A stretch of DNA of 26,895 bases, taken from positions 1 through 26,895 of the forward strand of contig JAUSPL010000107.1 of assembly GCA_030656535.1 (NCBI GenBank), in the 5' to 3' direction. The notes under the pieces are model-generated. The model saw nothing but the letters and a program-made list of their open reading frames with translations, made no database searches and was not told the DNA's origin. Made by a program: the position numbers and the translations under genes. Below, piece by piece: positions 3,850-20,017 of the stretch. The stretch comes from Gemmobacter sp. GTDB taxonomy: Bacteria > Pseudomonadota > Alphaproteobacteria > Rhodobacterales > Rhodobacteraceae. The stretch's first letter is position 1. Each line of letters starts with the position of its first letter.

Positions 3850-3911
3850 CTGAGTTCTCCCTTGGAAGGCCGGACCGCACCCGATCACTGGTCGAGCTTA
3901 ACGCCAAACTA

Positions 3912-3927
3912 ATTCAACTACATGAAT
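3912..3927 (-). promoter_or_regulatory. Putative SqrR/BigR-type operator ATTC-N8-GAAT
   Basis: Sequence ATTC-AACTACAT-GAAT, about 60 bp upstream of the sqr start. It matches the SqrR inverted-repeat consensus I recall for R. capsulatus and abuts the -10 element. Confidence 0.75.
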
Positions 3928-3933
3928 ATTATA
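3928..3933 (-). promoter_or_regulatory. Sigma70 -10 element (TATAAT) of the sqr operon
   Basis: Plus-strand ATTATA reads TATAAT on the minus strand, in an AT-rich patch upstream of sqr. The -35 position 17 bp away (CAAGGA) is a poor match. Confidence 0.6.
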
Positions 3934-4414
3934 AGTGCCCAGGGTTGGCGTCCTTGACATGGATCAGTTTCGGCCCCGCACCAGGTGTCTCTGAGATAAA
4001 TCCGTCTCTTTGCGAAAGCGCGCGAAACACCAGTGATCCGTGGCATTACTCCAGACACCTCAGGTCACCGCAAAGCCGGTACGGCACAGGCCGGCACCAG
4101 ATCTTTGCGCGATCTGCCAACGGCGAATATCCGAAGCCAGGTCAAAGCGGCCAGACCGTCACGCAACGTCGAGCTTGAGGTATTCCCCCAAGATCATCTG
4201 CGACACGGCGTCGACCGCCACACCACGTTGACATTGCTTCGTGCGGTTGATCCGGTTTGAAATGGGGTCTTGGCCCGCGACACATCGCATACCTCAGCCA
4301 GCCCAAGCACCTGTGCCGGTTGATCGCAGACCTTCGACAGCGTGTGCCGGCACCGTCAGCGCAATCGAACGGTGCTCCGCCGGGTTTGAAGGGTCGGGTC
4401 CCGGCGGGCTTGCT

Positions 4415-4430
4415 CAGCGACGCGTCGCTG
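4415..4430. repeat. Perfect 16-bp palindrome CAGCGACGCGTCGCTG
   Basis: Self-reverse-complementary sequence in the intergenic gap. Function unknown. Confidence 0.5.
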
Positions 4431-4472
4431 GCTGAGTCAAACTTCCCGAACGATTTCAAGATGTGGGCTTAT

Positions 4473-4501
4473 CTGCCCCCTCAGTTGCGGGAAGGGGGCA
4501 G
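4473..4501. repeat. GC-rich stem-loop (REP-like or terminator) downstream of the DUF3830 gene
   Basis: CTGCCCCCT-11 nt loop-AGGGGGCAG, a 9-bp stem about 70 bp after the DUF3830 stop. No U-tract on either side. Confidence 0.45.
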
Positions 4502-4572
4502 TGGTCAGCCTGTCCACCAAAGCGCAGCAGGCATTTGCTGCCGCTACCCCGGATGAAACAGCATCCCGGGCT

Positions 4573-4986
4573 TCAGGCGAGTTCGAACCGGATGGACTTG
4601 GCACCTTCATAAAGCACAAGGTTGCCAAGCGTCATCAGGTTCTCATGGCCACCCGTCAGCGTGATGAAATGGTTTCCAGCCAGTTGCCCCACCTTGGAAC
4701 TGAAATCGACGCCACCATAGGCAAGCAGGATCTCGGTCTCGGATATGCCGCCCGGATACAGGATGATTTGTCCGGGTGCGGGGTGGCTGGTAGCGTTTTC
4801 ATAGCCCACGCCAAAGTCGTAATCGCCAAGCGGCATCCACACCCCTTCGCCTGACCAGCGGACATGGACGATCTTGCTTTGAAAGGGCATCGCGGCGCGA
4901 AAAGCGGCACATGTTTTCGGTGCGGCCTCTTCCTCCAGTCTGGCAGGAAAGGTGAACGGGCCGGCGATGATGGTTATGGCAGTCAT
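4573..4986 (-). CDS. DUF3830 family protein (cyclophilin-like fold)
   Basis: MTAITIIAGPFTFPARLEEEAAPKTCAAF...HVRWSGEGVWMPLG...ENATSHPAPGQIILYPGGISETEILLAYG...SKVGQLAGNHF, matching the family signature as I recall it. RBS GAAAGGA before the ATG at 4986. Confidence 0.85.
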   Translation of the reverse strand: MTAITIIAGPFTFPARLEEEAAPKTCAAFRAAMPFQSKIVHVRWSGEGVWMPLGDYDFGVGYENATSHPAPGQIILYPGGISETEILLAYGGVDFSSKVGQLAGNHFITLTGGHENLMTLGNLVLYEGAKSIRFELA

Positions 4987-5096
4987 GATAGTCCTTTCAG
5001 GTGAAGCAAATCGGCAAGGTGGATCAATCGTGGCGGGCGCGCAGACACACGCCCCGTGATCAGGCAGGTGCTGCGTCGACGATGCTGACCCCGAAC

Positions 5097-6485
5097 TCAA
5101 CGGCCCAGATAAGTGCCATCGCCTTTGGTGCCCTGCAGGGCTCGGTCCTGAACCATCACTTTGCCACGCAGCACTACGGTGACCGGCCAGCCCGTTATTT
5201 CAAGCCCTTCATAGGGCGAGTAATCCGCGCCGTCGTGCAGATTGGCGTGGCGGATCGGGGCGGTCACCTTTGGGTCCCAGATCACGATGTCGGCGTCCGA
5301 GCCGACGGCAATCGTGCCCTTGCGCGGATACAGGCCATAGGTCTTGGCATGGTTTGTTGCGGTCAGCGCCACAAAGCGGTTGATGTCGATCCGGCCTTTC
5401 ATCACACCTTCGGAAAACAGGATCGGCAGGCGTGTCTCGACCCCCGGAATACCGTTGGGAATGTGCTTGAACTGCTTGGCCCCCTTGGGGTTCAGCTTGC
5501 CTTCGACGCTGTCATAGACGAACGGGCAATGGTCGGATGAGAACAGCTCGAATGTGCCGTCCTGAAGGCCGCGCCAGCAAGCGGCCTGATCCTCGGTTCC
5601 GCGTGGCGGCGGTGAGCAGACGAACTTTGCCCCTTCCCAATCCATGCCTTCCAGATCTTCTGCGGTCAGCACCAGGTATTGCGGGCAGGTTTCGGCGGTA
5701 ACCGCGACACCGCGCCTGCGGGCTGCGGCAATTTCGTCAATCGCCTGACCGTTGGAAACATGAACGATCACGATGGGGGTTCCCACCACTTCGGCAAAGG
5801 CCATCGCACGATGAGTGGCTTCACGTTCCACCGCAACAGGCCGGGTACGCGCATGGGCGCCAGGGCGCAGATCGTTTGCCGCCTCGTGCTTGCCGATCAG
5901 AAACTTGATCGCGTCCTCATTTTCGCAATGCACCATCACGGTTGCCCCAAGATCGCGGGCAACGTCAAAGGTCTGCAACAGTTCAGGATCCGTCAGGCGC
6001 AGGTTTTCATAGGTCATGAACACCTTGAACGAGGTATATCCGTCATTGAAAAGCGCCGGCAGATCCTGGCCCAGAACCTCGGGCGTGGGTTCACAGATGA
6101 TCAGATGAAAGCTGACGTCGGTGTAGCAGGTGCCATTGGCCAAAGCGTGATACTCGATCAGGGACTGCCGGATACTTTTGCCGCGTTCTTGCAGACAAAA
6201 CGGCATGATTGTGGTGTTGCCGCCGAACAGGGCTGATCGGGTTCCGCTTTCAAAGTCGTCGGCCATGACGATCCCGTCGCCCGACGGCTGAGAAATGTGG
6301 ACATGGCTGTCAATACCACCGGGCAGAACGTATTTGCCCGTGGCATCAAGAACCTGTTTGGCATCCTGCGCCAGATCCAACCCCAACGCGACAACGACCC
6401 CGTCGCGGATGCCGATGTCGCACACGAACGTATCCGAGGCGGTCGCGACGGTGCCGCCGCTGATCACGATGTCGAATGTCGCCAT
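5097..6485 (-). CDS. hydA: Dihydropyrimidinase / D-hydantoinase family cyclic amidohydrolase
   Basis: Binuclear-metal motifs GGIDSHVH, SFKVFMTY (carbamylated Lys), MVHCEN, IVHVS, SSDHCPF, plus FVCSPP and IPNGIPGVETR. RBS GGAGG. Confidence 0.92.
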   Translation of the reverse strand: MATFDIVISGGTVATASDTFVCDIGIRDGVVVALGLDLAQDAKQVLDATGKYVLPGGIDSHVHISQPSGDGIVMADDFESGTRSALFGGNTTIMPFCLQERGKSIRQSLIEYHALANGTCYTDVSFHLIICEPTPEVLGQDLPALFNDGYTSFKVFMTYENLRLTDPELLQTFDVARDLGATVMVHCENEDAIKFLIGKHEAANDLRPGAHARTRPVAVEREATHRAMAFAEVVGTPIVIVHVSNGQAIDEIAAARRRGVAVTAETCPQYLVLTAEDLEGMDWEGAKFVCSPPPRGTEDQAACWRGLQDGTFELFSSDHCPFVYDSVEGKLNPKGAKQFKHIPNGIPGVETRLPILFSEGVMKGRIDINRFVALTATNHAKTYGLYPRKGTIAVGSDADIVIWDPKVTAPIRHANLHDGADYSPYEGLEITGWPVTVVLRGKVMVQDRALQGTKGDGTYLGR

Positions 6486-6507
6486 TACGGCCTCCGGGCT
6501 GCTGGGT

Positions 6508-7410
6508 TCAGGTGTCGGCCAGTCCGAACAGGGTGTTCGGATTGATGGTGTTCATGCGGCGCAGTTCGTCGCGGCTGAAGCCTTCGGATTCCAGCAACAG
6601 CATGTATTGGCGAAAGCTCTCGACCGGCGGGGCCAGCAAAAACACGCCCGCGTCCGACGACACAATGGCCCGATCGCCCGCAGCGCGGATCTTGGGCGTA
6701 TAATCCTGAATTGTCTTGCCTTTGCTCTTGTGTTTTTCGGCATCGACATGAGTTAGCCCGACCTGCGTCGCATGAGAGACCGAGAAGAACGAAAACTCGC
6801 AATACGCGCCAAGGCTGACCAGTTCGGAAATATGCTCGGGCTCATACCCGCCGCAATGGGTCCGCAGGCGGGTAACGCCCTGCCGCTTGGCCTCGTGTGC
6901 CAGCGCGATCGCCTCGGGACCCGAGACGTGGCCGCAATCAAAAACGATATCGCGTTCGGCACAAAGAGCCATGATCGCCGGGACGGGATCGGGAACGCGG
7001 CCATCCTCGGGCACGCAAAAGGCGGCGTCAAGATAGGCCCCGCTGCGCCCCTCGCGCAGCGCGACATAGCGGGTGTGATGGGTCGGCAGCGACAGGAACT
7101 TCGCCCCGACGCCGAACTCGTAGCCATAGCCGACCGCACATTGCGCCACTTCCAGCGACACACCGCCCGCCGTGGGCTGCATGATCAGGCCGCCAAAGAC
7201 TTTGACACCTAGGTCGCCCAGTTCCGCCATCGCAAGGGCTGCATACCCCGACGAGTTCTGAAAGTTGTCCATCAGGCCCACAGCGCTCATGCCTGCGGCG
7301 GCTGCCTGGCGGATGGAATCAAGGACATTCACGCTGCGTCCGTTGAGGTGCGGACAGGTGTGGATATGGCAATCCACCGCACCGACGAGATAGTCCATGC
7401 CTTGCATCAT
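6508..7410 (-). CDS. DUF6282-like amidohydrolase-superfamily metalloprotein
   Basis: GAVDCHIHTCP (HxH), 'RQAAAAGMSAV', VFGGLIM, CGHVSGPE, RTHC and IVSSDAG follow the DUF6282 pattern as I recall it. RBS GAGGAAA. The start could be the second Met (7407). Confidence 0.75.
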   Translation of the reverse strand: MMQGMDYLVGAVDCHIHTCPHLNGRSVNVLDSIRQAAAAGMSAVGLMDNFQNSSGYAALAMAELGDLGVKVFGGLIMQPTAGGVSLEVAQCAVGYGYEFGVGAKFLSLPTHHTRYVALREGRSGAYLDAAFCVPEDGRVPDPVPAIMALCAERDIVFDCGHVSGPEAIALAHEAKRQGVTRLRTHCGGYEPEHISELVSLGAYCEFSFFSVSHATQVGLTHVDAEKHKSKGKTIQDYTPKIRAAGDRAIVSSDAGVFLLAPPVESFRQYMLLLESEGFSRDELRRMNTINPNTLFGLADT

Positions 7411-7428
7411 TTCGGTTTTCCTCTTGGA

Positions 7429-8166
7429 TCAGTGGCGCAGGATACGGCTGACGAAATCCGTACAGCGTTGGGTCTGCGGGTTATCAAATATCTGTTCGGG
7501 CGGACCGACCTCGACGACGCGGCCATCGGCCATGAACACGACCTTGCTGGAAACCTCGCGCACAAAGCCCATTTCGTGGCTTACAATCATCATTGTCATG
7601 CCGTCATCGGCCAGCAGCCGGATCGTGTCCAGAACCTCTGACACCAGTTCGGGGTCAAGCGCCGAGGTGACCTCGTCCAGGTGCAGGATGTCCGGTTTCA
7701 GCGCCAGCGCGCGCGCAATGGCCACGCGCTGCTGCTGGCCGCCCGACATCTCATCAGGATAGGCGTCAATGCGGTGGGACAGGCCGACCTTTTCCAGCAG
7801 CGCGCGCGCCTCGGCCTCCACCTCGGCGGCCTTTCGTTTTTGCACAATCGTGGGCGCGATGGTGACGTTGCGCAGCGCGGTCATGTTCTGAAACAGGTTG
7901 AACTGCTGGAACACGATGGCGAATTTTTCGCGGGCGCGGCGAAGATCCTTCGGACTGTCATAGCGCAGCTTTTCGCCCGCCACCGCAACAGACCCGGCGC
8001 GAGGTTTCAGAAGGCCCGTCAGCACCCGCAAGAGCGTGCTTTTACCCGATCCCGAGGGACCGATGATCGAGACGATCTCTCCGCGCTCAACGGCAAGGTT
8101 GATATCCTGCAACACAGGCACTTTGCCGTAATCTGCGGACAAATTATCGATTTCTAGGTAGGGCAA
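7429..8166 (-). CDS. Polar amino acid ABC transporter ATP-binding protein (GlnQ/HisP type)
   Basis: Walker A GPSGSGKS, Q-loop FQQFNLF, signature MSGGQQQRVAIARAL, DEVTSALDPELV and SHEMGF. Likely TTG start at 8166 behind GGAGG, overlapping the permease 3' end. Confidence 0.95.
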   Translation of the reverse strand: MPYLEIDNLSADYGKVPVLQDINLAVERGEIVSIIGPSGSGKSTLLRVLTGLLKPRAGSVAVAGEKLRYDSPKDLRRAREKFAIVFQQFNLFQNMTALRNVTIAPTIVQKRKAAEVEAEARALLEKVGLSHRIDAYPDEMSGGQQQRVAIARALALKPDILHLDEVTSALDPELVSEVLDTIRLLADDGMTMMIVSHEMGFVREVSSKVVFMADGRVVEVGPPEQIFDNPQTQRCTDFVSRILRH

Positions 8167-8830
8167 GGCGCACCTCCATGTAGGCGGCAAGGCGATTGAG
8201 GGAGTAGCAGATCACAAAGTACATCAACAAGATCGAGCCAAAGCACAGGGCAGCAGAGAACCCCTTTTGATTCAAGATCTTGGCAACGCTGGTCATTTCC
8301 AGAACCCCGATCTGCGACGCGATGGACGTGGATTTCACCAGACCGACCGAATAGGTCATCGAAGGCGGGATGATGACCGACCATGCTTGCGGCAAGATGA
8401 CCCGGCGCAGCGCGGTCAGGCCGCCCATATTCATGGTCTCGGCGGCGTCCCACTGATTGGGATGGACAGATTCAATGCCGGCGCGAATGTTCTCTGCCGA
8501 AAAGGCCGATGCCGAAAGGGCAATGGTCGTCGCCGCAACCGTGAACATGCTGACGTTGCCCCCGGCGAACTGAAAGGCGAAAAAGACGACCATCAGTTTC
8601 ACCAGAAACGGAATGCGGCGCCACACTTCGACCCAAAGCGTGGCAAGCCAGCGCAGCCCGGCCCACCGGTTGATGCGCCTGGTTCGCAAGATCGCCAGCA
8701 CGAAGCCTGCCAGAAACCCTACTCCACAGCCAACAAATGACAGGACCAACGTGTAGAGGAACGCCTTGGCCAGGAAGATCGAGTTGTAATAGTTGAAAAA
8801 TCGCGGAAGCTCTTCCAGTATCGACGGCAT
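8144..8830 (-). CDS. Polar amino acid ABC transporter permease (HisM/GlnP type)
   Basis: Hydrophobic TM segments, WVEVWRRIPFLV, EAA-loop region AENIRAGIESVHPNQWDAAETMNM, and LVKSTSIAS. TGATG overlap with the upstream permease. Confidence 0.93.
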   Translation of the reverse strand: MPSILEELPRFFNYYNSIFLAKAFLYTLVLSFVGCGVGFLAGFVLAILRTRRINRWAGLRWLATLWVEVWRRIPFLVKLMVVFFAFQFAGGNVSMFTVAATTIALSASAFSAENIRAGIESVHPNQWDAAETMNMGGLTALRRVILPQAWSVIIPPSMTYSVGLVKSTSIASQIGVLEMTSVAKILNQKGFSAALCFGSILLMYFVICYSLNRLAAYMEVRLALPRNR

Positions 8831-9504
8831 CAGAACACGCTTCCCTTGATCCGAAAGAAATAGCGCCCGACGGTATAAAGGATCGTGCTCGCGACGATTG
8901 TCAGCACGATGTAGTAGACCGCCGAAATCGAGAACACCTCCAGTGATCGGAAGGTGATGGAGTTGATGTTGTAGGCGCGACCCGTCAGTTCCTCGACACC
9001 AAAGATCGCGGCGATCGACGTGGACATCGTGATGATGATGAACTGGTTGGACAGCGGCGGGTACAGGACCTTCAGGATGTGCGGCACGACGACGTAGCGG
9101 ATCGACTGAACGCGGGTAAAGCCCAGCGTCTCGGCTGCCTCGATCTCTTCGCGACGGATCGACCTGAAACCGGCGCGCTGGATTTCGCTCATGTAGGCAC
9201 CAGCATTCAGCGCCAACCCGATCAACACGGCGTCATAGGAATCCAGCAAGATGCCGTAGTCGGGAAGCGCGAAATAGATGAAGAATATTTGCACAAGCAG
9301 CGGCGTGTTCAACACAAACACCACATAGCTGCGGACCGCGATACGCGCAGGTTTCGGGCCATACTCGGTGATGGATGCGCAGACAAGGCCGATCGCCCAA
9401 CCAATGATGAAGGCGACCACCGCAAGCTGCAGCGCGATCCAGGCACCCCCGGCTAGGTACCACAGGTATGGGGTGACCTGCCCAAATTGTAGCGTGTAGT
9501 TCAT
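8830..9504 (-). CDS. Polar amino acid ABC transporter permease (HisQ/GlnP type)
   Basis: Start MNYTLQFGQV, motif NTPLLVQIFFIYFALP, and EAA loop SEIQRAGFRSIRREEIEAAETLG. Confidence 0.93.
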   Translation of the reverse strand: MNYTLQFGQVTPYLWYLAGGAWIALQLAVVAFIIGWAIGLVCASITEYGPKPARIAVRSYVVFVLNTPLLVQIFFIYFALPDYGILLDSYDAVLIGLALNAGAYMSEIQRAGFRSIRREEIEAAETLGFTRVQSIRYVVVPHILKVLYPPLSNQFIIITMSTSIAAIFGVEELTGRAYNINSITFRSLEVFSISAVYYIVLTIVASTILYTVGRYFFRIKGSVF

Positions 9505-9532
9505 TGGGCAAGCCTTTTTCCAGCTATGGTGT

Positions 9533-10357
9533 TCAGAAGTAAGGAGAGACCGGAACCTTGCTGGCCATCGGCGACAGGAACCATTTTTCCCAAGCAGCCT
9601 CGATGGCGCCCGACGTGTGAAGTTCATAGATCGCCAGGTTCAGCCAGTCTTTCAGGGTGTCATTCCCCTTGGCGACACCGAGCGAGGAATAGGTGATACC
9701 CCACTCCGGAACCGGAATGATCTTCCACTTGGTGTTGGCAAATGCCGCCAGGCGGAAGGGCATGGAATCAATCCCGTCGAACGACGCGTCACCACGCCCT
9801 TGGGTCAAGGCCCGATCGCGGTCGGCATAGTTGTCAAGAAGGATAAGTTTGGCCTTGGGCAGCTTTTGCTCGATAAAGGGGATCGCTGTGGTGCCGCGCA
9901 CCTGGATAAGCGTGATGTTCTCGTTGTTCAAATCTTCAAGACTTGTGATCGGCGAATCCGGCTTGGCCACGATGCCGTAGTTTTCCGAGTGCAGCGGAAC
10001 GGTAAAGTCGATAACCTTGGCACGGTCGACCTTGCGGCTCATTGCGCCCATGACTGCGTCAACCTTGCCTGCGGCCACAAATGGAATACGATCAGGCGAA
10101 CCCACCTGGACCAGCACCAACTTGACCCCCATCATCTCTGCAATCAGGCCTGCGATTTCCGGTTCAAAGCCGTCGATCTCATTCTTGTCGTTGAAAAGCG
10201 CGCGTGGCGGCAGGGTCGGGTTCACGCCGACGCGAAACTCCCCCGATGCCAGGATTTCGTCCAGCGTTCGCGCATCGACGGCGGCAGGTGCCACAAAGGC
10301 AGCAGAGGCAATCAGCGCAGCGGCGCCAAATACCCGACGGAAAACTCCAGATAACAT
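9533..10357 (-). CDS. Polar amino acid ABC transporter substrate-binding protein (family 3)
   Basis: Signal peptide MLSGVFRRVFGAAALIASAAFVAPAAVDA, then RTLDEILASGEFRVGV, IDGFEPEIA, RIPFVAAGKVD, RGTTA and LGVAKGNDTLKDWLN. RBS AAGGAG 6 nt before the ATG at 10357. Confidence 0.93.
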   Translation of the reverse strand: MLSGVFRRVFGAAALIASAAFVAPAAVDARTLDEILASGEFRVGVNPTLPPRALFNDKNEIDGFEPEIAGLIAEMMGVKLVLVQVGSPDRIPFVAAGKVDAVMGAMSRKVDRAKVIDFTVPLHSENYGIVAKPDSPITSLEDLNNENITLIQVRGTTAIPFIEQKLPKAKLILLDNYADRDRALTQGRGDASFDGIDSMPFRLAAFANTKWKIIPVPEWGITYSSLGVAKGNDTLKDWLNLAIYELHTSGAIEAAWEKWFLSPMASKVPVSPYF

Positions 10358-10415
10358 TGCATTCTCCTTGTTGGTGCAGGAACCATCCTGCTTTAGGTCC
10401 GCTTGGCAGATCGTC

Positions 10416-10422
10416 TGTATAC
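10416..10422. promoter_or_regulatory. TGTATAC, GntR/FadR-type operator-like half site overlapping a possible -10 (TATACA) of the ABC operon
   Basis: Resembles the TTGTATACAA-type GntR boxes. A second similar element, TTGTATGCA, is at 10594-10602. The motif is short, so a chance match is possible. Confidence 0.3.
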
Positions 10423-10482
10423 TGTTCGTACGCAATTCGTGCACGATGAGTGGCTCTGTGTCAACGACCTTGCAGGCAATCT

Positions 10483-10497
10483 TGGCCCACAATTTGC
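10483..10497 (+). promoter_or_regulatory. Possible sigma54 -24/-12 element
   Basis: TGGCCC-ACAAT-TTGC has exact GG-N10-GC spacing and points toward the flavin oxidoreductase about 200 bp downstream. There are mismatches to consensus, and no enhancer-binding protein gene lies in the window. Confidence 0.3.
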
Positions 10498-10704
10498 CTT
10501 GCGAAGCACAGCTGAAGGCAACTTCTGGGCACCAACAAGGCACTCTGCCCGCAGAAGCGCTTATGCGGGCAGCAATTCAAAGTGTTGCTTGTTTTGTATG
10601 CAGAGAATATGCAGAAATGTGACTGCAGCTTGCAAACAAAGGAAAGAGTCCGTGCCGGGAAGAACGTCCATATCGCTTTCATTGGCCTCTCAGAGCAGTT
10701 GGAC

Positions 10705-12057
10705 ATGAAGCATCCCGACTGCATCGTCATAGGTGGCGGAATGGCAGGCCTGTCGGCGGCGCATGCGCTGCGGTCGCGTCACGTTCTGGTACTGGAAGAG
10801 TCGCACCGCCCCGGTGGTCGGGTTCATTCCCTTATGGCCGGGGACTATTGGTTGAACTTTGGCGCCCATATGTTCGGCGGACCCGAGACGCTGCTGGGCG
10901 CCCTGACGACAGAGTTCAATTTGCCATCCGAACCAATCCGGGGGCGGCTGATGGGCATGATTTATGGTGGCAAGCGCCTGTTGCGGCATCCACCCGAAAG
11001 CTATCCCTTCTTGCTTCCGTTTTCTTTGCGTGAACGGTTTGCGATGCTGCGTATGGGCCTGGCGCTTCGGCTTGGGTCCTCAAGCTATGTGACCCACATG
11101 AAGGGCTGCGACGACGCCACCCAACTTCCGCAACATGCCCTGTCCTTTCGCAATACCCGCACCCTCAGTCAGGCGATCGGTCAGATGCCGCCCCGCGTGG
11201 CCGAATTCCTGACCGCGATCACCGAGCGCAACGGTGGAGATCCCGATGATATGGCGGAAGGCCACGCCCTGCGGTCCTTTACCAATGTCTGGAGCACACA
11301 CGCCCCCGGCCGCAATATAATCGGCGGATCTGCCCTGCTGCCTCAGGCCATGGCAAACGCGCTTGGTGACGGAATCCGCTATGGTCACAGTGTGGATCGG
11401 GTGACGCGGGATGCCCAAGGCGTGACCGTGCAGTATCGGCATGGCACAACACACGCCAGCGTCCGCGCCAGAACCGCCATCATCGCCGTTCCCGCCCCGG
11501 TCGCCGCGCGCATCATGCACGACCTGCCGCCCGCCACCCTGAACGCCCTGCGCAACGTCACCTATGGTCCCTTCCTGTCGGCGTCAGTTCTGACCCGTGA
11601 AACAACGGCCATGCCTTGGGATGGCCATTACGCAATCGCCACCCCGGGTCGCAGCTTCAGCGTGCTGTTCAACATGGCGACAACCCTTCGCAGCGGCGTT
11701 CGCCGCCCGGGCGGAAGCCTGATGCTGTTTCGCGGCGCGCGTGGCGCTGCGGCACTGATGGAAATGACCGACGCCGCAATCGAACAGCAATTCCGACGGG
11801 ATCTGCTGGACCTGTTCCCCGAAGCAAAAGACATCCTTGGCGACATCGTCGTGCAGCGCTGGCCGTTGGGCGCGCCGTTCTCTCGACCGGGCCGCGCCGC
11901 ACTGCAACCGGGACTGACAGCGCCGCTGGAGCCTGCTTTTCTGGCGGGCGATTATATGGAATTCCCGAATATGGAAGCCGCCGTCGCCAGCGGCCAGGCC
12001 GCTGCGCGCAAGGCTCTCGCGTTGCTGACCGCGCCCGGGCACAAGACGCCAGCCTAG
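10705..12057 (+). CDS. FAD-dependent oxidoreductase, flavin amine oxidase / protoporphyrinogen oxidase superfamily
   Basis: Start MKHPDCIVIGGGMAGLSAA (GxGxxG), then LEESHRPGGRV, GAHMF, ARTAIIAVPAPVA, and C-terminal FLAGDY...MEAAVASGQAAA. The specific substrate cannot be assigned. Confidence 0.88.
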   Translation: MKHPDCIVIGGGMAGLSAAHALRSRHVLVLEESHRPGGRVHSLMAGDYWLNFGAHMFGGPETLLGALTTEFNLPSEPIRGRLMGMIYGGKRLLRHPPESYPFLLPFSLRERFAMLRMGLALRLGSSSYVTHMKGCDDATQLPQHALSFRNTRTLSQAIGQMPPRVAEFLTAITERNGGDPDDMAEGHALRSFTNVWSTHAPGRNIIGGSALLPQAMANALGDGIRYGHSVDRVTRDAQGVTVQYRHGTTHASVRARTAIIAVPAPVAARIMHDLPPATLNALRNVTYGPFLSASVLTRETTAMPWDGHYAIATPGRSFSVLFNMATTLRSGVRRPGGSLMLFRGARGAAALMEMTDAAIEQQFRRDLLDLFPEAKDILGDIVVQRWPLGAPFSRPGRAALQPGLTAPLEPAFLAGDYMEFPNMEAAVASGQAAARKALALLTAPGHKTPA

Positions 12058-12227: not shown

Positions 12228-13478
12228 ATGCGCTATTCGGGACTGAAGGTCATCACCGAAGGGTTGTTCGGCAACAAGGGCTGGAAACCTGCGTGGCGCG
12301 ACCCGGCGCCCAAACCTGAATATGATGCGATCATCGTAGGCGGCGGCGGCCATGGCCTCGCAACGGCCTACTATCTGGCAAAAGACCACGGGCTGACCAA
12401 TATCGCGGTGCTGGAAAAGGGCTATCTTGGGTCGGGCAACATCGGGCGCAACACGACCATCGTGCGGGCCAACTATTTTCTGCAGGGCAACTCTGAATTC
12501 TATTCGCACAGCCTCAAGCTTTGGGAAGGACTGGAAGCCGAGCTGAACTACAACGTCATGCACAGCCAGCGCGGGTTGATCAACCTGTTCCATTCCGACG
12601 GCCAGCGCGATGCCTTTGTGCGGCGTGGCAACGCCATGATAAATCAGAGTGACGACGCGGTGCTGCTGGACCGCGAGGGCGTTCGCAAACTCTTGCCCTA
12701 CCTCGATTTCGACAACACCCGTTTTCCTATTTACGGTGGCCTGCTGCACCCTAGGGGCGGGACCGCGCGGCATGACGCTGTGGCCTGGGGCTATGCACGC
12801 GGCGCGGATACACGCGGGGTCGATTTGATCCAGAACTGCGAAGTGACGGGTATCGACATCGAAAATGGCCAGGTGACCGGCGTGCAGACCTCTCGCGGGG
12901 CGATCCGGGCGAAAAAGGTGGGCATGATCGTGGCGGGCCGGTCGGGTCAGGTGGCAGCGATGGCGGGGATGCGGCTTCCGGTCGAATCCCACGTCCTGCA
13001 AGCCTTTGTGACCGAGGGTCTGAAGCCCGTGATCGACCACGTCATCAGCTTTGGGATGGGACATTTCTATATCAGCCAGTCCGACAAGGGCGGGCTGGTG
13101 TTCGGCGGTGACCTTGATTTCTATGCCTCTTATGCCTCGCGCGGGAACCTGCCGATGGTCGAACACGTGATGGAGGCGGGCATGACCCTGATGCCGATGA
13201 TCGGCCGCGCAAAGGTGCTGCGGTCCTGGGGTGGCATCATGGACATGACGCCCGACGGGTCGCCCATCATCGACAAGACCCATATCAATGGCCTCTATAT
13301 CGACTGCGGCTGGAACTACGGCGGGTTCAAGGCCGTGCCTGCCTCAGGGTGGTGCATGGCACACCTGATGGCCACCGACAAAAGTCACCAGTTCGCCCGC
13401 CGCTTTCGCCTGGATCGCTTTGCCACAGGGCATGTGATGGACGAAGAAGGCACCGGCAGCCAGCACAACCTGCACTGA
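12228..13478 (+). CDS. soxB: Heterotetrameric sarcosine oxidase family, beta subunit
   Basis: MRYSG...AWRDPAPKPEYDAIIVGGGGHGLATAYYLAK, GRNTTIVRANY, GTARHDAVAW (covalent-FMN His region) and WGGIMDMTPDGSPII. Confidence 0.96.
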   Translation: MRYSGLKVITEGLFGNKGWKPAWRDPAPKPEYDAIIVGGGGHGLATAYYLAKDHGLTNIAVLEKGYLGSGNIGRNTTIVRANYFLQGNSEFYSHSLKLWEGLEAELNYNVMHSQRGLINLFHSDGQRDAFVRRGNAMINQSDDAVLLDREGVRKLLPYLDFDNTRFPIYGGLLHPRGGTARHDAVAWGYARGADTRGVDLIQNCEVTGIDIENGQVTGVQTSRGAIRAKKVGMIVAGRSGQVAAMAGMRLPVESHVLQAFVTEGLKPVIDHVISFGMGHFYISQSDKGGLVFGGDLDFYASYASRGNLPMVEHVMEAGMTLMPMIGRAKVLRSWGGIMDMTPDGSPIIDKTHINGLYIDCGWNYGGFKAVPASGWCMAHLMATDKSHQFARRFRLDRFATGHVMDEEGTGSQHNLH

Positions 13479-13489
13479 GGGCTACACCC

Positions 13490-13759
13490 ATGCGCATCCC
13501 CTGCCCCCACTGCGGCCAACGTGACCGGCGCGAGTTCTATTACTCGGGTGCCGATGACTTGCTGCACCGCCCGGCCACCGATGACCCGGCGGCATGGGAC
13601 AACTATCTGCATCTGCGTGACAACCCCGCCGGGGACACACGCGACCTGTGGTATCACGAACCCTGCGGAACATGGATTGTGGTCAGCCGCAACACTGTCA
13701 CCCATGCCGTGGACGGCGCACAGGCGGTGACAGATGTGGCGCAGGGGGTGCGGACATGA
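13490..13759 (+). CDS. soxD: Sarcosine oxidase family, delta subunit
   Basis: MRIPCPHCGQRDRREFYY, YLHLRDNPAG and WYHEPCGTW (Zn ligands CxxC...HxxC), and RNTVTH. Confidence 0.95.
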   Translation: MRIPCPHCGQRDRREFYYSGADDLLHRPATDDPAAWDNYLHLRDNPAGDTRDLWYHEPCGTWIVVSRNTVTHAVDGAQAVTDVAQGVRT

Positions 13760-16686
13760 GGATCGATGGCAAGGGTCTGATCGACCGCAGCTCAACCTTG
13801 CGGTTCACCTTTGACGGGGTGGAATATCGCGGACATCCCGGCGACACGCTGGCCTCGGCCTTGATGGCCAATGATGTGCGCATGGTCGCACGCAGCTTCA
13901 AGTATCACAGGCCGCGCGGGGTTCTGACCGCAGGGTCCGAAGAACCCAACGCCCTTGTCGAAATCATGGATGGCGCGCAACAGACGCCAAACGTCCGTGC
14001 AACGGTGCAGGAATTGTACGACGGTCTGGCCGCGCAAAGCCAGAACCGCTGGCCCGCGCTGGGGCTGGATGTTCTGGCGGTCAATGACCTGATGGCGCCA
14101 TTCCTGTCTGCCGGGTTCTACTACAAGACGTTCATGTGGCCGCGCGCCTTGTGGGAACGTGTCTATGAGCCGCTGATCCGCCGCGCGGCGGGGCTGGGCA
14201 GCCTGTCGGGCAAACATGACGAGGCCCGTTATGAAAAGGCCTATGCGTTTTGCGATCTGCTGGTGATTGGCGCGGGTCCTGCGGGTCTGATGGCGGCCTT
14301 GGTCGCGGCGCGGGCGGGTGCGGATGTGATTCTGGCGGATGAGGATACCCGCATGGGCGGGCGCCTGCTGGCCGATCAACCCGAGGTGGACGGCCAGCCC
14401 GGGCACCTGTGGGCAGCGGGGATTGTCGCGGAACTGACGGCGTTGCCCAACGTGCGGCTGATGCCGCGCACCAGCGTCACGGGCGCCTATGACCACGGCG
14501 TTTACGGTGCGCTGGAACGTGTGGGCTTGCACAAATCCAACCTTGGAGACCTGCCGCGCGAATGTTTCTGGCGCATTACCGCCCGTCGCGCGATCTTGGC
14601 CGCTGGCGCGCTGGAACGGCCCATCGCCTTTCCGATGAACGACCGTCCCGGTATCTTGATGGCGGGCGCTGTGCGCGCCTATGTCAACCGCTACGGCGTC
14701 ACCCCCGGCCAGCGCGTCGCCGTGTTCGGCAACAACGACAGCGCGCATGCCACCGCCCGCACCCTGGCCGAGGCCGGGGTCGATGTGGCCGCGATCATCG
14801 ACTCGCGTGACGATGCCGCACCAGCGGGGGATTTCCAGACCTATCGCGGCGCGGTCGTCACCGGCACCAAGGGACGCCGCGGGTTGCGGCAGATCACCAT
14901 CCGGCACGGCAATCGCGATCAGACCCTGTCGGTCGATACACTTGCAGTCTCCGGCGGCTGGAACCCGGCGGTGCATCTGACCTGCCACATGAACGGGCGT
15001 CCCGTTTGGAACCCCGACATCGCGGCCTTTGTGCCGGCACCCGGTGCGGTGCCGGGCCTGTCGGTGGCTGGCGCTGCGGCGGGTGTATTTTCAACGGCTG
15101 GCTGTCTGGAACATGGCGTGCAGGCCGCGATTGCCGCGCTGTCCGACCTTGGCCTGACGGGCGCGGCCCCAACCGTGCCGCGCGCCGAGGACGGGCACTA
15201 CGCCATAACCCCCCTTTGGTCGGTCGAGGGCAAGGGCAGAGCCTGGCTCGATTTTGCAAATGATGTGACCGTAAAGGACGTCAAACTGGCCGCGCAAGAA
15301 AACTTTGCCAGCGTCGAGCACATGAAACGCTATACCACGCAAGGCATGGCCCCGGATCAGGGCAAGACCTCGTCGGTCGGGGCGCTGGCCGTGCTGGCTG
15401 ACGCCACCGGACGCGGCATTCCGCAGACCGGCACCACGACCTTCCGCCCACCCTATACACCCGTCTCGATTGCGGCGATGGGTGCTGGTGGCAGGGCCGA
15501 GGGCTTTGCGCCACAACGCTTTACCACCTCGCATGCCGCCAGCGTTGACCGCCGCGCGCCGATGATCGAGGCGGGCTATTGGTATCGGCCCAGCTATTTC
15601 CCCAAGCCCGAAGAGCCGACGTGGCGCGAATCCTGCGACCGAGAGGTGGCAATGGTCCGCCAGACGGTCGGCATCTGCGACGTGTCGACCCTGGGCAAGA
15701 TCGACATTCAGGGTGCCGATGCCGCCAGGTTCCTGGATCTGGTCTACAGCAACACCTTTTCGACGCTGGCGGTGGGCCGCGTTCGCTATGGGTTGATGCT
15801 GCGCGAAGACGGGTTCGTGATGGACGACGGCACATCGGCCCGGCTGGGTGAAACCCATTTCGTGATGACCACGACCACGGCAGCAGCAGGTCCGGTCATG
15901 CGGCATCTGGATTTCGTACAGCAGGCCTTCTGCCCGACATGGGACGTGCGCACGATCTCCGTCACCGAAAGCTGGGCACAGTTCGCCGTCGCAGGGCCAC
16001 GGGCGCGCGACCTGCTGAATTCGGTGTTGGACAGCCCGCTGCAGCCAGAGGCCTTTCCCTTCATGGGGTGTGGCCCGGTGTCGGTGGCGGGCACGCAGGC
16101 GCGGCTGTTCCGCATCTCGTTCTCGGGCGAGCAAGGGTATGAAATCGCGGTTCCGGCGCGGTATGGCGATTCATTGTTCCGGGATCTGGTCGCACGGGCC
16201 GAAACGATGGGCGGTGGTCCCTACGGGATGGAGGCGCTGAACGTGCTGCGGATCGAAAAGGGCCTGATAACCCATTCCGAGATCCATGGCCGGACCACTG
16301 CCTTTGATATCGGCATGCAAAAGATGGTGTCCGTGAAAAAAGACTGTATCGGCAAGGTCGCCAGCCAGCGCCCCGGCCTCACCGGCGAAGACCGCGAGCA
16401 GCTGGTCGGCCTGCGCCCGGTCGATGCGTCCAAGGTGCTTACGGCGGGGGCGCACCTGTTCACGCCCGGCGCGGACGTCAAACGCGAAACCGATCAGGGC
16501 TACGTCACCTCGGTCGGGTACTCGCCGACGCTGGGGACGTGGCTGGGACTCGGGTTCCTGAAAAACGGCCGCGCACGGGTGGGCGAGATGGTGCGTCTGG
16601 TCGATCATCTGCGAAAGATCGACATTCTGTGCGACGTCTGCGACCCGGTGTTCGTTGACCCAAAAGGGGAGAAGCTGCGTGCCTAA
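13756..16686 (+). CDS. soxA: Sarcosine oxidase family, alpha subunit
   Basis: ATGA overlap with soxD. GDTLASALMAN, RSFKYHRPRG, FYYKTFMWP, VIGAGPAGL, KRYTTQGMAPDQGKTS, and the GcvT-like folate domain DVSTLGKID...ISFSGEQGYE...LRIEKG. Confidence 0.96.
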   Translation: MRIDGKGLIDRSSTLRFTFDGVEYRGHPGDTLASALMANDVRMVARSFKYHRPRGVLTAGSEEPNALVEIMDGAQQTPNVRATVQELYDGLAAQSQNRWPALGLDVLAVNDLMAPFLSAGFYYKTFMWPRALWERVYEPLIRRAAGLGSLSGKHDEARYEKAYAFCDLLVIGAGPAGLMAALVAARAGADVILADEDTRMGGRLLADQPEVDGQPGHLWAAGIVAELTALPNVRLMPRTSVTGAYDHGVYGALERVGLHKSNLGDLPRECFWRITARRAILAAGALERPIAFPMNDRPGILMAGAVRAYVNRYGVTPGQRVAVFGNNDSAHATARTLAEAGVDVAAIIDSRDDAAPAGDFQTYRGAVVTGTKGRRGLRQITIRHGNRDQTLSVDTLAVSGGWNPAVHLTCHMNGRPVWNPDIAAFVPAPGAVPGLSVAGAAAGVFSTAGCLEHGVQAAIAALSDLGLTGAAPTVPRAEDGHYAITPLWSVEGKGRAWLDFANDVTVKDVKLAAQENFASVEHMKRYTTQGMAPDQGKTSSVGALAVLADATGRGIPQTGTTTFRPPYTPVSIAAMGAGGRAEGFAPQRFTTSHAASVDRRAPMIEAGYWYRPSYFPKPEEPTWRESCDREVAMVRQTVGICDVSTLGKIDIQGADAARFLDLVYSNTFSTLAVGRVRYGLMLREDGFVMDDGTSARLGETHFVMTTTTAAAGPVMRHLDFVQQAFCPTWDVRTISVTESWAQFAVAGPRARDLLNSVLDSPLQPEAFPFMGCGPVSVAGTQARLFRISFSGEQGYEIAVPARYGDSLFRDLVARAETMGGGPYGMEALNVLRIEKGLITHSEIHGRTTAFDIGMQKMVSVKKDCIGKVASQRPGLTGEDREQLVGLRPVDASKVLTAGAHLFTPGADVKRETDQGYVTSVGYSPTLGTWLGLGFLKNGRARVGEMVRLVDHLRKIDILCDVCDPVFVDPKGEKLRA

Positions 16687-17245
16687 CCTGATTTCAAAGT
16701 CGCCATGCGCCGGTCTGCATCTGCCGCTGACCAGCGGCGGTATCACCCTGTCTGAAGACGGCGTCGGTCCGATCACGTCGGTCGCCCCTTTTGTCGGGCA
16801 AGACAAGGCCGTCACCAAGGCGCTGAAACCGCTGGGCCTGACCTTTCCTGAACCCAACAGCGTGGTCAGCGGCAAGGCCAGCCAGATGGTTTGGACCGGA
16901 CGTGGACAGGCGTTCATGATCGGCGCTGCGCCGACGGACGCCCTGGCGGCCTGTGCGGCGCTTACCGATCAGTCCGACGGCTGGGCCTGCTTGCGGCTGC
17001 AAGGACCGCAGGCCGAGGCCGCGCTGGCCCGATTGGTGCCGCTGGACCTGCGCCCGGCAGCTTTCGGGGCCGGGGCGGCAGCCCGCAGCCTGCTCAATCA
17101 CATGCCGGTCATCCTGATCCGTACGGGGGACGGGATCGCGGTGATGGTTTTTCGGTCAATGGCTGCGACAGCCGTGCACGAGATAAAAGAGGCGATGGAT
17201 GCCGTCGCCGCCAGAACCTTTGCAAGCAGCGCGCAATTGGCCTGA
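16679..17245 (+). CDS. soxG: Sarcosine oxidase family, gamma subunit
   Basis: GTG start overlapping the soxA end. Contains TDQSDGWACLRLQGPQAEAALARLVPLDLRP and VFRSMA. Confidence 0.9.
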   Translation: MPNLISKSPCAGLHLPLTSGGITLSEDGVGPITSVAPFVGQDKAVTKALKPLGLTFPEPNSVVSGKASQMVWTGRGQAFMIGAAPTDALAACAALTDQSDGWACLRLQGPQAEAALARLVPLDLRPAAFGAGAAARSLLNHMPVILIRTGDGIAVMVFRSMAATAVHEIKEAMDAVAARTFASSAQLA

Positions 17246-17311: not shown

Positions 17312-18562
17312 CTAGGTGGCAAAATCGTCCCACATTCCGCCCGACAGTCCCATACACTCGGGCTGGCCGAACACGACGCTTTCAACCATCATGCGCAAGA
17401 ACGGTACCCATTCGGCGTCCCAGTCTTCGCGCAGCATGCCGTCTTGCCAGACCGGCCCGGGGGTCTGAGTGAACTCGACCCGCCCGGCAACCATCCTGCT
17501 ATAGTGAAACACAGTATCGGCGCGCCCCTTGTACGCCAGATACGCGGCCCCCATGCTCATGTGCACCTTGCGCCCACCAATCTCGATAGAGGCAGAGCTT
17601 TCGCCAAACTTCCCGTCGGGCGCGATGACGACAAAGCGTGGCTCGGACCGGACCAGCTTGGCCGCACGCAGCAAACCAGTCCCCAAGTCGCCCCGGGTCT
17701 GGAACACGGCGTGCCGACCCCAATTTGACGCCTCGCGCGCGTTCGATGCAACGACCAGACGTGGCACATCAATCTGTTCCACCCGCCAGCGCAGAAAGCG
17801 CAGAAACGATGTGTGCAAAGACACCGCCATCGTGCCCAGGCCCGCCGCCAAACGGTCACGAATCGCCCGGTCGTCGACGTGACCGGCAATTGCGTCCAGT
17901 TGCCGAAAAATACGGTCGGCCTCGGCAGCCTGATCCGGGTCGCGCCTGGCGCGGCGCAGCAAAACCACCATCGTCCTAAGAAATATCCCGGCTGCCCTGC
18001 CATACAAGGCGCGTTGACGAAACTCGGCCTTGGACATGCCGGCATCGCCCCTCATGTCATAGATCGACGAGATCAGCTTTTCATCGACCGGTCCCAGATG
18101 CAGTTGCAGCCGCTCTGGGTCCAGGGATTGCAAGGTATCGCTGATCGACTCCGGGGCGCGGTTCCAGCCAAGCGCGCGCATGGCCTGCGACATATCCCGC
18201 GCGGCACCGGGTGCCGCGTCGCCCATCGCGTCAATCCGCTTGCGCAAAATGGCAGCGGCTGGAGGCAGACGCGGAAAAGCGTCCAGCAGACTCAGGGCAA
18301 AGGACGCACCATTGCTATCACCGCCCGCAATCGCATCACGTGCCACCTCCATTGCGGCGTTGGCGCGCTGGAAAGGCATGCCCCGGTCAGGATTGGTGGC
18401 CTGCGATTTGGTCAGGGCTGTCAAAAGGCCGCTCAAAAGCGACAGTTCGGGCAGCGGGTTATTGGCCCCTTGCCACTGGCTGCTGGCAAGCCAAGCCGCG
18501 GTGTCGGTATGGCCGTAGGCCTCCAGGACCTGCGAAAGCAGCGCGTCATGCGCCGGGTTCAT
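17312..18562 (-). CDS. Hypothetical protein with a C-terminal LpxL/LPLAT-like acyltransferase fold
   Basis: 416-aa ORF with an ATGA overlap on the hisE stop. The C-terminal half shows RLAAGLGTMAVSLH, FVVIAPDG, IEIGGRKVHMSMGAAYLAYKGRADTV and QPE, in the same block order as lipid A acyltransferases. Confidence 0.7.
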   Translation of the reverse strand: MNPAHDALLSQVLEAYGHTDTAAWLASSQWQGANNPLPELSLLSGLLTALTKSQATNPDRGMPFQRANAAMEVARDAIAGGDSNGASFALSLLDAFPRLPPAAAILRKRIDAMGDAAPGAARDMSQAMRALGWNRAPESISDTLQSLDPERLQLHLGPVDEKLISSIYDMRGDAGMSKAEFRQRALYGRAAGIFLRTMVVLLRRARRDPDQAAEADRIFRQLDAIAGHVDDRAIRDRLAAGLGTMAVSLHTSFLRFLRWRVEQIDVPRLVVASNAREASNWGRHAVFQTRGDLGTGLLRAAKLVRSEPRFVVIAPDGKFGESSASIEIGGRKVHMSMGAAYLAYKGRADTVFHYSRMVAGRVEFTQTPGPVWQDGMLREDWDAEWVPFLRMMVESVVFGQPECMGLSGGMWDDFAT

Positions 18563-19642: not shown

Positions 19643-20017
19643 CGCATGCCCTCCGATTGCGGTCCCTTCTGACCCACCCAAGCCGGGGGCGCAAGCCCCG
19701 TGCACAGGTTCCACCGCCCGCCTATGCACGGTCCAACCGTCCAGCCCGCGCTGCGGGACTTTGTGAAAGCCCCCACGCGGGCAAACTTGATCGCACGATT
19801 TCCCTACGAACCCGCCGTGAAACCCAAGGAATGTACGACCGGACCACGCCTGCCCGGATAGCGGATTGCCCCGGATGTATCAGGTGCTGAATGCTGCATC
19901 GTCGCGACTCGCGTGCAATCCATTGACAACCACAGGGTCACGAACGGATACACTGTGCTGATTTTAGCGTGTTGCTGTTGGCCTCATGGGCCCATACCAA
20001 AAGGAACACTCGTCATC

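Follow-up and report, generated by a model that had tools for sequence, protein, structure and literature searches.

We analyzed a stretch of 26,895 nucleotides from Gemmobacter sp. (assembly GCA_030656535.1, contig JAUSPL010000107.1), referred to throughout as the window. It carries a cluster of eight genes encoding an ATP-binding cassette (ABC) importer, one DUF6282 and one DUF3830 protein, a hydantoinase-type enzyme (HYD) and a flavin amine oxidase family protein (AmOx). Genes were called from an open reading frame (ORF) listing combined with Pfam and NCBIfam scans of the window, and these scans agree with an earlier note, made from the sequence alone, on the places and families of all eight genes (Table 1). 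That note had also described AmOx as head-to-head with the remaining seven genes; AmOx is indeed divergent from the gene for the substrate-binding protein (SBP), but the soxBDAG operon (12228-17245) that follows it on the same strand had been omitted.

Table 1. Features of the cluster and its immediate surroundings, with positions in the window
Feature	Position	Strand	Remarks
SBP, polar-amino-acid family	9533-10357	-	274 aa, signal peptide; SBP_bac_3, E 7e-29
ABC permease 1	8830-9504	-	BPD_transp_1 and TIGR01726 (HEQRo 3-TM), 85 bits vs cut-off 42
ABC permease 2	8144-8830	-	BPD_transp_1 and TIGR01726, above cut-off; start overlaps permease 1 stop by 1 nt
ABC ATPase, GlnQ-like	7429-8190	-	ABC_tran, E 1e-37; GlnQ model 273 bits, under its cut-off
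DUF6282 protein	6508-7410	-	300 aa; PF19799, 138.5 bits vs cut-off 26.8
HYD, D-hydantoinase/dihydropyrimidinase type	5097-6485	-	462 aa; TIGR02033, 526.7 bits vs 393.25; NF009941, 697.4 vs 647
DUF3830 protein	4573-4986	-	137 aa, small beta-barrel; PF12903, 109.6 bits vs cut-off 26
AmOx, flavin amine oxidase family	10705-12057	+	about 450 aa; PF01593, E 3e-41, 142.5 bits vs 19.8
Divergent intergenic region	10358-10704		presumed control region, between the SBP and AmOx starts
Gene-free stretch	3889-4572		about 680 bp, downstream of DUF3830; no convincing gene, Rfam match or regulator remnant
soxB	12228-13478	+	TIGR01373, 661.9 bits vs 529.45; 170 nt after AmOx
soxD	about 13490-13759	+	PF04267
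soxA	13756-16686	+	Fer2_4 (PF13510), SO_alpha_A3 (PF17806), GCV_T (PF01571, folate-binding), GCV_T_C
soxG	16655-17245	+	last gene of the heterotetrameric sarcosine-oxidase-type operon

Several translation starts differ from those of the longest ORFs. The SBP ORF extends to 10543, and its likely start is the ATG at 10357, preceded by an AAGGAGA ribosome-binding site; the AmOx ORF begins at 10582, and the likely starts of AmOx (10705) and permease 1 (9504) are likewise internal. The ATPase gene may begin at either of two TTG codons, 8190 or 8166, and overlaps permease 2 by up to 47 nt. The DUF3830 start, an ATG at 4986 with a GAAAGGA ribosome-binding site, agrees with all homologues and yields a product identical to that of a public-set gene. 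The tight packing and ribosome-binding sites claimed in the earlier note hold for most of the operon: at the remaining junctions, neighbouring genes overlap by 1 nt or stand 18-28 nt apart (22 nt between DUF6282 and HYD), and Shine-Dalgarno-like motifs lie upstream of the SBP, permease 2, DUF6282, HYD and DUF3830 genes. The packing is looser at the last junction, where 110 nt separate the HYD stop from the DUF3830 start without any overlap. Neither a sigma-70-like promoter nor an Rfam family was found in the window. Terminator-like sites in the window were no commoner than in shuffled sequence, with none between DUF6282 and HYD, and the window, its 680-bp gene-free stretch included, held no GntR or other regulator gene or remnant.

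The importer has the make-up of a polar amino acid ABC system, as previously proposed, combining an SBP_bac_3 protein, HEQRo 3-TM permeases and a GlnQ-type ATPase, and the closest solved structures to the SBP are amino-acid-binding proteins. None of the equivalog models for glutamine, cystine, ectoine, histidine or arginine importers reached its cut-off with these proteins, which argues that the imported substrate is none of these five compounds.

Two modules in one putative operon

Gene neighbourhoods in other genomes were derived from ORF calls, BLAST and annotated plasmid records, and the neighbours were clustered and scanned with Pfam. For a first module, the ABC genes with DUF6282, the sample consisted of 24 loci from other genomes with DUF6282 orthologues 62-77% identical to that of the window (10 kb was requested on each side, several flanks being shortened by contig ends). 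A class-wide sample comprised 401 alphaproteobacterial genomes. Of the 24 loci, 23 have DUF6282 downstream of the same ABC genes, 21 of them with the ATPase gene directly upstream, and the importer proteins of these loci are 53-74% (SBP), 65-77% (permease 1), 67-76% (permease 2) and 70-82% (ATPase) identical to those of the window. SBP orthologues head the same operon in most of loci L009-L032 and in L105. For a second module, hydA (the gene for HYD) adjoins DUF3830 in Agrobacterium vitis pAt, Aureimonas pAU20b and Azospirillum argentinense p3, and a single racemase-family gene stands between the two in Paraburkholderia. HYD identity is 52-72% in these carriers and 52-78% overall among orthologues found beside DUF3830 or DUF6282. 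Since the first gene order recurs in 23 of 24 loci and the second in at least four other genera, both are conserved beyond chance. The cluster is a mosaic of these two independently conserved modules, ABC-DUF6282 and hydA-DUF3830, joined into one putative operon.

A hydantoinase gene also accompanies the first module elsewhere. It directly follows DUF6282 in a Rhodobacteraceae metagenome-assembled genome (L030, 78% identity) and in Enterovirga (L031, 47%). A further locus, L105 (G235:C4:108000-127999), belongs to another alphaproteobacterial family; there, the ABC genes, DUF6282 and a phosphotriesterase-family gene (PTE) diverge from an operon that reads OoxA, DAO, DHDPS, HYD and GntR. This layout mirrors that of the window, and no other version of the system that we saw is as complete.

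The partners found around both modules point in a common direction. The ABC-DUF6282 genes are surrounded elsewhere by genes for a long DHDPS-family protein, a phosphotriesterase-family hydrolase, GntR and EamA, and both modules recur near flavin dehydrogenases of the opine/D-hydroxyproline type, as well as near DHDPS-family and GntR regulator genes. A single operon in A. vitis pAt and Aureimonas pAU20b encodes an SBP, a permease, a DHDPS-family protein, a fused FAD oxidoreductase of about 960 aa, an ATPase, hydA and DUF3830; Azospirillum argentinense has the same genes in a rearranged order. Orthologues (44-73%) of the DHDPS, fused FAD oxidoreductase and second ABC genes adjoin ABC-DUF6282 in 7 of the 24 loci, and in one further genome (G110) this set adjoins DUF3830 without hydA. 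Because all three pairings of modules thus occur in independent lineages, the neighbourhoods argue for a related chemistry of the two modules, though the exact combination present in the window was not found elsewhere. The genome that contains the window has DHDPS-family genes on contigs C231 and C165, and C231 carries both a 52% identical orthologue of the long DHDPS protein and a GntR fragment.

The window is the entire contig C8 of a metagenome-assembled genome of 3.45 Mb in 657 contigs, about 70% complete, and the sequencing run that best matches the contig DNA is a groundwater metagenome. The nearest relatives of its genes belong to Hyphomicrobiales. G+C content falls to 0.56-0.57 at 8001-11000, over the importer genes and the divergent promoter region; elsewhere in the window it is 0.59-0.67 and for the most part exceeds 0.61. 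This dip is consistent with acquired DNA. DUF3830, DUF6282 and AmOx were absent from all three same-family genomes sampled. Given these absences and the G+C dip over the importer, the cluster looks like an accessory island. Farther along the window lie a 416-aa ORF (17312-18562, reverse strand) with coding-like third-position G+C content and no Pfam match at E 0.001 in two scans, and a gene for a 788-aa protein (19913-22279, forward strand) with eight RTX calcium-binding repeat matches, flanked by two PF00977 (His_biosynth) genes on the opposite strand, presumably hisF and hisA.

Predicted enzymes of the cluster

HYD aligns end to end with the D-hydantoinases PDB 1NFG and 4KQN (E about 1e-122; 5e-122 for 1NFG), and its metal-site motifs DSHVH, FKVFM (with the Lys), HCEN, VHVS and SSDH align with both. 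All residues of the binuclear metal site and of catalysis are thus present, carbamylation of the Lys being a feature that is not visible from sequence. The loops of HYD differ from the usual pattern, with Gln-Pro-Ser and Arg/Lys in place of Met-Pro-Phe and Phe/Met. Across the clade, loop 1 is longer by one residue (an insertion) and loop 3 shorter by one (a deletion), and the last position is always Arg or Lys. In Bacillus D-hydantoinase, Met63, Leu/Phe65 and Phe159 are what we take to be the contacts to the substrate side chain; HYD has Gln, Ser and Arg at these positions and so lacks the hydrophobic substrate gate. The hydrophobic pattern is kept in a dihydropyrimidinase linked to a RutR-type regulator (genome G016) and in the hydantoinase of G235. 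We infer that the HYD substrate carries a polar or anionic substituent, which fits the amino-acid-type importer.

HYD scores far under the cut-offs of allantoinase models (257 vs 358), and the genome encodes two other hydantoinase paralogues on the short contigs C597 and C28. A PuuE-type allantoinase gene is split over the ends of contigs C150 and C431, the latter continuing with genes for OHCU decarboxylase, an AllE-like cupin and ureidoglycolate lyase; with these genes, a canonical ureide route is encoded outside the window. Allantoin, considered as a substrate of the cluster, was down-weighted on account of these genes. As a separate observation, Aureimonas pAU20b (15701-37077, L083) holds a second, 73% identical copy of the HYD clade in an operon of ABC, cysteine-desulfurase-like and hydA genes, and Ensifer adhaerens is listed with the same pairing, a hint that the clade may have a further substrate.

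The AlphaFold model of DUF3830 (pLDDT 94.7) superposes on 3KOP (Z 19.9, root-mean-square deviation 1.8 A) and on the barrels of the Pictet-Spenglerases KslB (Z 17.8) and McbB (Z 16.3), with deviations of 2.1 A over 126-129 residues; cyclophilins follow at Z of about 11 and PxpB/C-type domains at about 6. As modelled, the fold is much closer to the KslB/McbB catalytic barrel than to cyclophilins, and a fold of this kind does not give the reaction. Residues P23, E63, G72, Y90 and G128 are invariant in the family, and H41 and N64 are nearly so. Searches of the ESM Atlas returned only sub-threshold leads for DUF3830 (scores 0.84-0.88), to cyclophilin-like families and cucumopine synthase.

The genomic contexts of DUF3830 are varied yet chemically coherent. 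Besides an MFS-racemase-hydA-racemase-DUF3830 arrangement in Paraburkholderia, they include a dihydroorotase-family gene next to DUF3830 in Azospirillum ramasamyi (with formamidase, amidohydrolase and ABC genes on the opposite strand); allB followed farther on by an amidohydrolase, an AtzD-like ring-opening amidohydrolase, a formamidase and DUF3830 in Skermanella; and ABC, RidA, two amidohydrolase, racemase, GntR and DUF3830 genes on Rhizobium johnstonii pRL10. In Paracoccus pantotrophus, DUF3830 is present twice, next to allE and a gene for a Zn hydrolase. In G016, a gene for an M20 carbamoylase-like protein overlaps DUF3830 by 4 nt, with the RutR-type regulator and the dihydropyrimidinase nearby. 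DUF3830 is moreover found fused to amidohydrolases (5), PuuD-type urate oxidase N-terminal domains (7), OHCU decarboxylase (3 clusters), a PuuE-like deacetylase (2) and an M20 protein (1), though some of the singleton fusions may be gene-calling artefacts. Through its neighbours and fusions, the family is tied to ureide breakdown across bacteria and archaea. It is also large, with more than 8000 clusters at 90% identity matched and 77-85% identity across many taxa named. The literature searched contains no mention of DUF3830, DUF6282, PF12903 or PF19799, and no link of a hydantoinase with cyclophilin-like proteins.

The AlphaFold model of DUF6282 (pLDDT 95.2) is a TIM barrel in which H15, H17, H161, E205 and D253 (an HxH motif, His, Glu and Asp) are nearly invariant. 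It lies equally far, at Z 17-19, from dipeptidases, PHP/PTE-like lactonases, TatD, LigI-like hydrolases and cyclic amidohydrolases. On this model, DUF6282 is a predicted metal-dependent hydrolase of the amidohydrolase superfamily without a close characterized relative. Distant members (25-30% identity) are found beside TRAP transporters and HpcH-type aldolases, and the subfamily of the window beside DHDPS-type enzymes.

The best PDB match of AmOx is weak (8P84, a monoamine oxidase, E 2e-13), and its subfamily is rare, being present in 3 of 400 other genomes. A 48% identical homologue directly follows DUF6282 in a Bosea metagenome-assembled genome (L016). More distant homologues (34-37%) adjoin one DHDPS-family gene in a Pseudonocardia plasmid and lie near two in an Agrobacterium deltaense plasmid, with proline-racemase-family genes farther along in both; in two of three plasmids, those of A. 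deltaense and Pantoea, the homologue stands beside SBP and GntR genes. The AmOx neighbourhoods in G164, G142 and G292, and the region downstream in L016, were uninformative. By analogy, AmOx most likely plays the oxidase part held elsewhere by secondary-amine or imino-acid flavin enzymes.

The operon at 12228-17245 has every sequence feature of a heterotetrameric SoxBDAG enzyme of the sarcosine-oxidase type and is the only sox operon found in the incomplete assembly. As no soxB gene adjoins any AmOx or DUF6282 homologue examined elsewhere, adjacency in the window is the only link between soxBDAG and the system. The operon may be a housekeeping one, and its membership in the system is uncertain.

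A tentative route and its alternatives

We propose, with slightly less than even confidence, that the cluster serves the uptake and breakdown of an acidic compound, a cyclic ureide or imide of an amino or imino acid; which class the substrate belongs to, how the steps are ordered and what the two DUF proteins do are all points that we infer. The ABC importer would take up an anionic cyclic ureide or imide of this kind, for which a 5- or 1,5-substituted hydantoin or a dihydropyrimidine-like ring with a carboxylate are candidates and an opine lactam is possible. HYD would open the ring to give an N-carbamoyl (ureido) acid, and DUF3830 may aid the ureido step as a racemase, as a ureido- or hemiaminal-cleaving enzyme or as a partner of HYD. 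DUF6282 could strip a further amide, ester or carbamoyl group, and AmOx, perhaps with SoxBDAG, would oxidize the amino or imino acid set free.

Several observations weigh against this reading. DUF3830 is present in none of the 24 DUF6282 loci, several of which are truncated at a contig end, and among the 401 alphaproteobacterial genomes, where DUF3830 occurs in 30 (about 7%) and DUF6282 in 14-16, only three others hold both, always on separate contigs. The exact set of seven genes was not found in any other locus examined. As DUF6282 and DUF3830 were never found together in the other loci, the two modules may serve different substrates. In the class-wide sample, a strong TIGR02033-type hydantoinase gene is no more than 5 kb away for only 2-3 of the 30 DUF3830 genes, and the DHDPS-family partner and GntR regulator that recur elsewhere are not in the window. 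Furthermore, the fold searches yield no specific reaction for DUF3830 or DUF6282, and no RNA run is among the sequencing runs listed as carrying the contig DNA.

These results reshape the picture drawn in the earlier note. Its claim of one complete, co-inherited route in which both DUF proteins supply the missing steps is not borne out, given the separation of the two families in the 24 loci and in the three other genomes that hold both. Co-occurrence of the cluster genes, on which that claim depended, was recovered within each module but neither for the full seven-gene set nor for DUF6282 with DUF3830. What stands is an uncharacterized catabolic cluster distinct from pyrimidine breakdown; it is a two-module mosaic rather than a demonstrably complete system.

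The separation of the DUF families leads directly to the most serious competing explanation, namely, an accidental juxtaposition on an accessory island. ABC-DUF6282 would serve one substrate, handled in Bosea-type loci with opine/hydroxyproline-type dehydrogenases, DHDPS and a PTE-like hydrolase, and hydA-DUF3830 would serve general ureide or hydantoin nitrogen salvage. Each module occurs alone in many genomes, the contexts of DUF3830 are very diverse, and the 110-nt gap ahead of DUF3830 suits such an origin as well as the lack of joint DUF loci does. However, in three further lineages (L030, L031 and L105) a hydantoinase has joined the DUF6282 cluster, just 22 nt without a terminator-like site separate DUF6282 from HYD, and the modules have a third partner in common: the fused FAD oxidoreductase, accompanied by DHDPS and a second ABC system. 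We regard a chance arrangement as unlikely, though it retains real weight.

A bolder reading gives DUF3830 the central part, as an undescribed enzyme of ureide chemistry built as a stand-alone Pictet-Spenglerase-type barrel. It would split a ureido-hemiaminal or N-carbamoyl-imine into urea and a 2-oxo acid, or racemize hydantoins. In concert with the HYD clade and a flavin C-N oxidase, it would turn substituted hydantoins into oxo acids along a route that needs no carbamoylase, with DUF6282 feeding this route as a second new hydrolase. We put this version forward as a long shot worth stating, with roughly one chance in five in its favour.

It seems improbable that HYD is simply an ordinary dihydropyrimidinase that has become separated from the reductive pyrimidine pathway, or else a second allantoinase, with neighbours unrelated to it. 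NCBIfam would name HYD dihydropyrimidinase, and DUF3830 is present in purine and ureide clusters. Against this, the loops of HYD are unlike those of the RutR-linked dihydropyrimidinase and of Bacillus D-hydantoinases, and its allantoinase score is far under the cut-off; the PuuE, OHCU decarboxylase, AllE-like cupin and ureidoglycolate lyase genes are already on C150/C431; and amino-acid importers and flavoenzymes stay neighbours of its orthologues. The earlier note had named a displaced pyrimidine gene as the outcome that would undo its view; with two paralogues in the genome HYD is not a lone displaced hydA, and it belongs to a clade whose altered loops set it apart from the RutR-linked dihydropyrimidinase.

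A creatinine/N-methylhydantoin route, one of the examples offered in that note, fares slightly worse still and strikes us as very improbable. DUF6282 would deaminate creatinine, HYD would open 1-methylhydantoin without ATP, DUF3830 would decarbamoylate N-carbamoylsarcosine and SoxBDAG would oxidize sarcosine. Such a route finds three hydrolytic steps for three unassigned proteins, needs no further carbamoylase in a window that has none, and makes use of a soxBDAG operon whose SoxA is folate-binding and which starts 170 nt past AmOx (on the strand facing the importer operon). Yet soxB is not found beside the DUF6282 or AmOx homologues examined elsewhere, whose partners are hydroxyproline/opine-type dehydrogenases and DHDPS rather than sarcosine oxidase. 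The polar/basic HYD loops would suit a charged side chain, and an amino-acid-type binding protein is odd for neutral creatinine. Of the known enzymes of the pathway, only sarcosine oxidase is in the window, which lacks both a HyuA/HyuB-type N-methylhydantoinase and an isochorismatase-type N-carbamoylsarcosine amidase; the creatinine literature held nothing relevant to the cluster.

Equally little credence goes to the breakdown of a diketopiperazine of proline, hydroxyproline or sarcosine, with HYD opening the ring, DUF6282 as a dipeptidase, DUF3830 binding the imino-acid peptide and the oxidases consuming imino acids: both modules do partner imino-acid oxidases, dipeptidases, the renal type among them, rank with the best structural matches of DUF6282 (Z 17-19) and DUF3830 has a cyclophilin-like fold, but the dipeptidase matches tie with many unrelated amidohydrolases, DUF3830 is nearer to Pictet-Spenglerase barrels (Z 17.8 vs about 11 for cyclophilins), its fusions and neighbours indicate ureides rather than peptides, and we know of no hydantoinase or dihydropyrimidinase that cleaves diketopiperazines.

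Import and degradation of an acidic cyclic ureide or imide is the reading that we carry forward. DUF3830 is a very large and very conserved family, tied to ring-opening amidohydrolases and ureide enzymes and folded like enzymes that handle iminium intermediates, and DUF6282 is a second orphan family, of predicted metal hydrolases, nearly always bound to one importer. Identification of the substrate would fill a gap in the use of cyclic nitrogen compounds by soil, plant-associated and groundwater bacteria, and the cluster could yield new enzymes for hydantoinase processes in biocatalysis.

Comparison with known systems

The window matches neither of the canonical clusters built on cyclic amidohydrolases, a point on which the earlier note was right. 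From the reductive pyrimidine cluster, PreT/PreA and beta-ureidopropionase are not among the window genes, to which this comparison was limited (the rest of the approximately 70%-complete genome was not searched). The allantoin pathway is closer, as DUF3830 is found beside or fused to allantoinase-type and other ureide enzymes and the window has a ring-opening amidohydrolase of the same superfamily. HYD is, however, neither an AllB nor a PuuE allantoinase, and the importer and flavin oxidase of the window have no counterpart there.

A hyu cluster consists of a hydantoinase, an N-carbamoyl-amino-acid amidohydrolase, a hydantoin racemase and a permease. The window resembles it in having a D-hydantoinase-type enzyme with all catalytic residues beside an uptake system, and in Paraburkholderia hydA-DUF3830 is even flanked by two genes of the Asp/Glu/hydantoin-racemase family and a transporter gene. 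In contrast to hyu clusters, the window has neither an M20 or nitrilase-type carbamoylase nor an Asp/Glu-racemase-family gene, its uptake system is an amino-acid-type ABC importer, and DUF3830 and DUF6282 stand in the free places; the HYD loops are polar/basic rather than hydrophobic.

The likeness of DUF3830 to the Pictet-Spenglerases KslB and McbB (the cucumopine-synthase family), two-domain enzymes with a catalytic Glu, concerns the catalytic beta-barrel, on which its model superposes. The barrel domain of these enzymes is where an amino acid and a 2-oxo acid bind and where an iminium intermediate is processed (PMC12012969). DUF3830 consists of the barrel alone, without the helical-bundle domain and hence without the two-domain organization, and identity is 13-17%. 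The resemblance, as far as the model goes, appears to be one of shared fold and not of family membership.

The catabolism of 4-hydroxyproline and opines provides the closest parallel to the surroundings of both modules. It relies on a flavin cHyp oxidase or a three-subunit D-hydroxyproline/opine dehydrogenase together with a DHDPS-family Pyr4H2C deaminase (PMC4113996, PMC4575208), and the pairing of a flavin oxidase with this deaminase is established for the 4-hydroxyproline route (PMC4113996). These enzyme families, along with polar-amino-acid ABC and GntR genes, are recurrent partners of both modules elsewhere, and AmOx homologues lie near DHDPS-family and proline-racemase-family genes. For such a route the window itself offers just one candidate, the flavin oxidase AmOx, a DHDPS-family gene, an epimerase and a semialdehyde dehydrogenase all being absent from it; conversely, the known pathways have no hydantoinase, DUF3830 or DUF6282. 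Set against these systems, what is new here is an uncharacterized variant of hydantoin/ureide and imino-acid catabolism that involves two orphan families.

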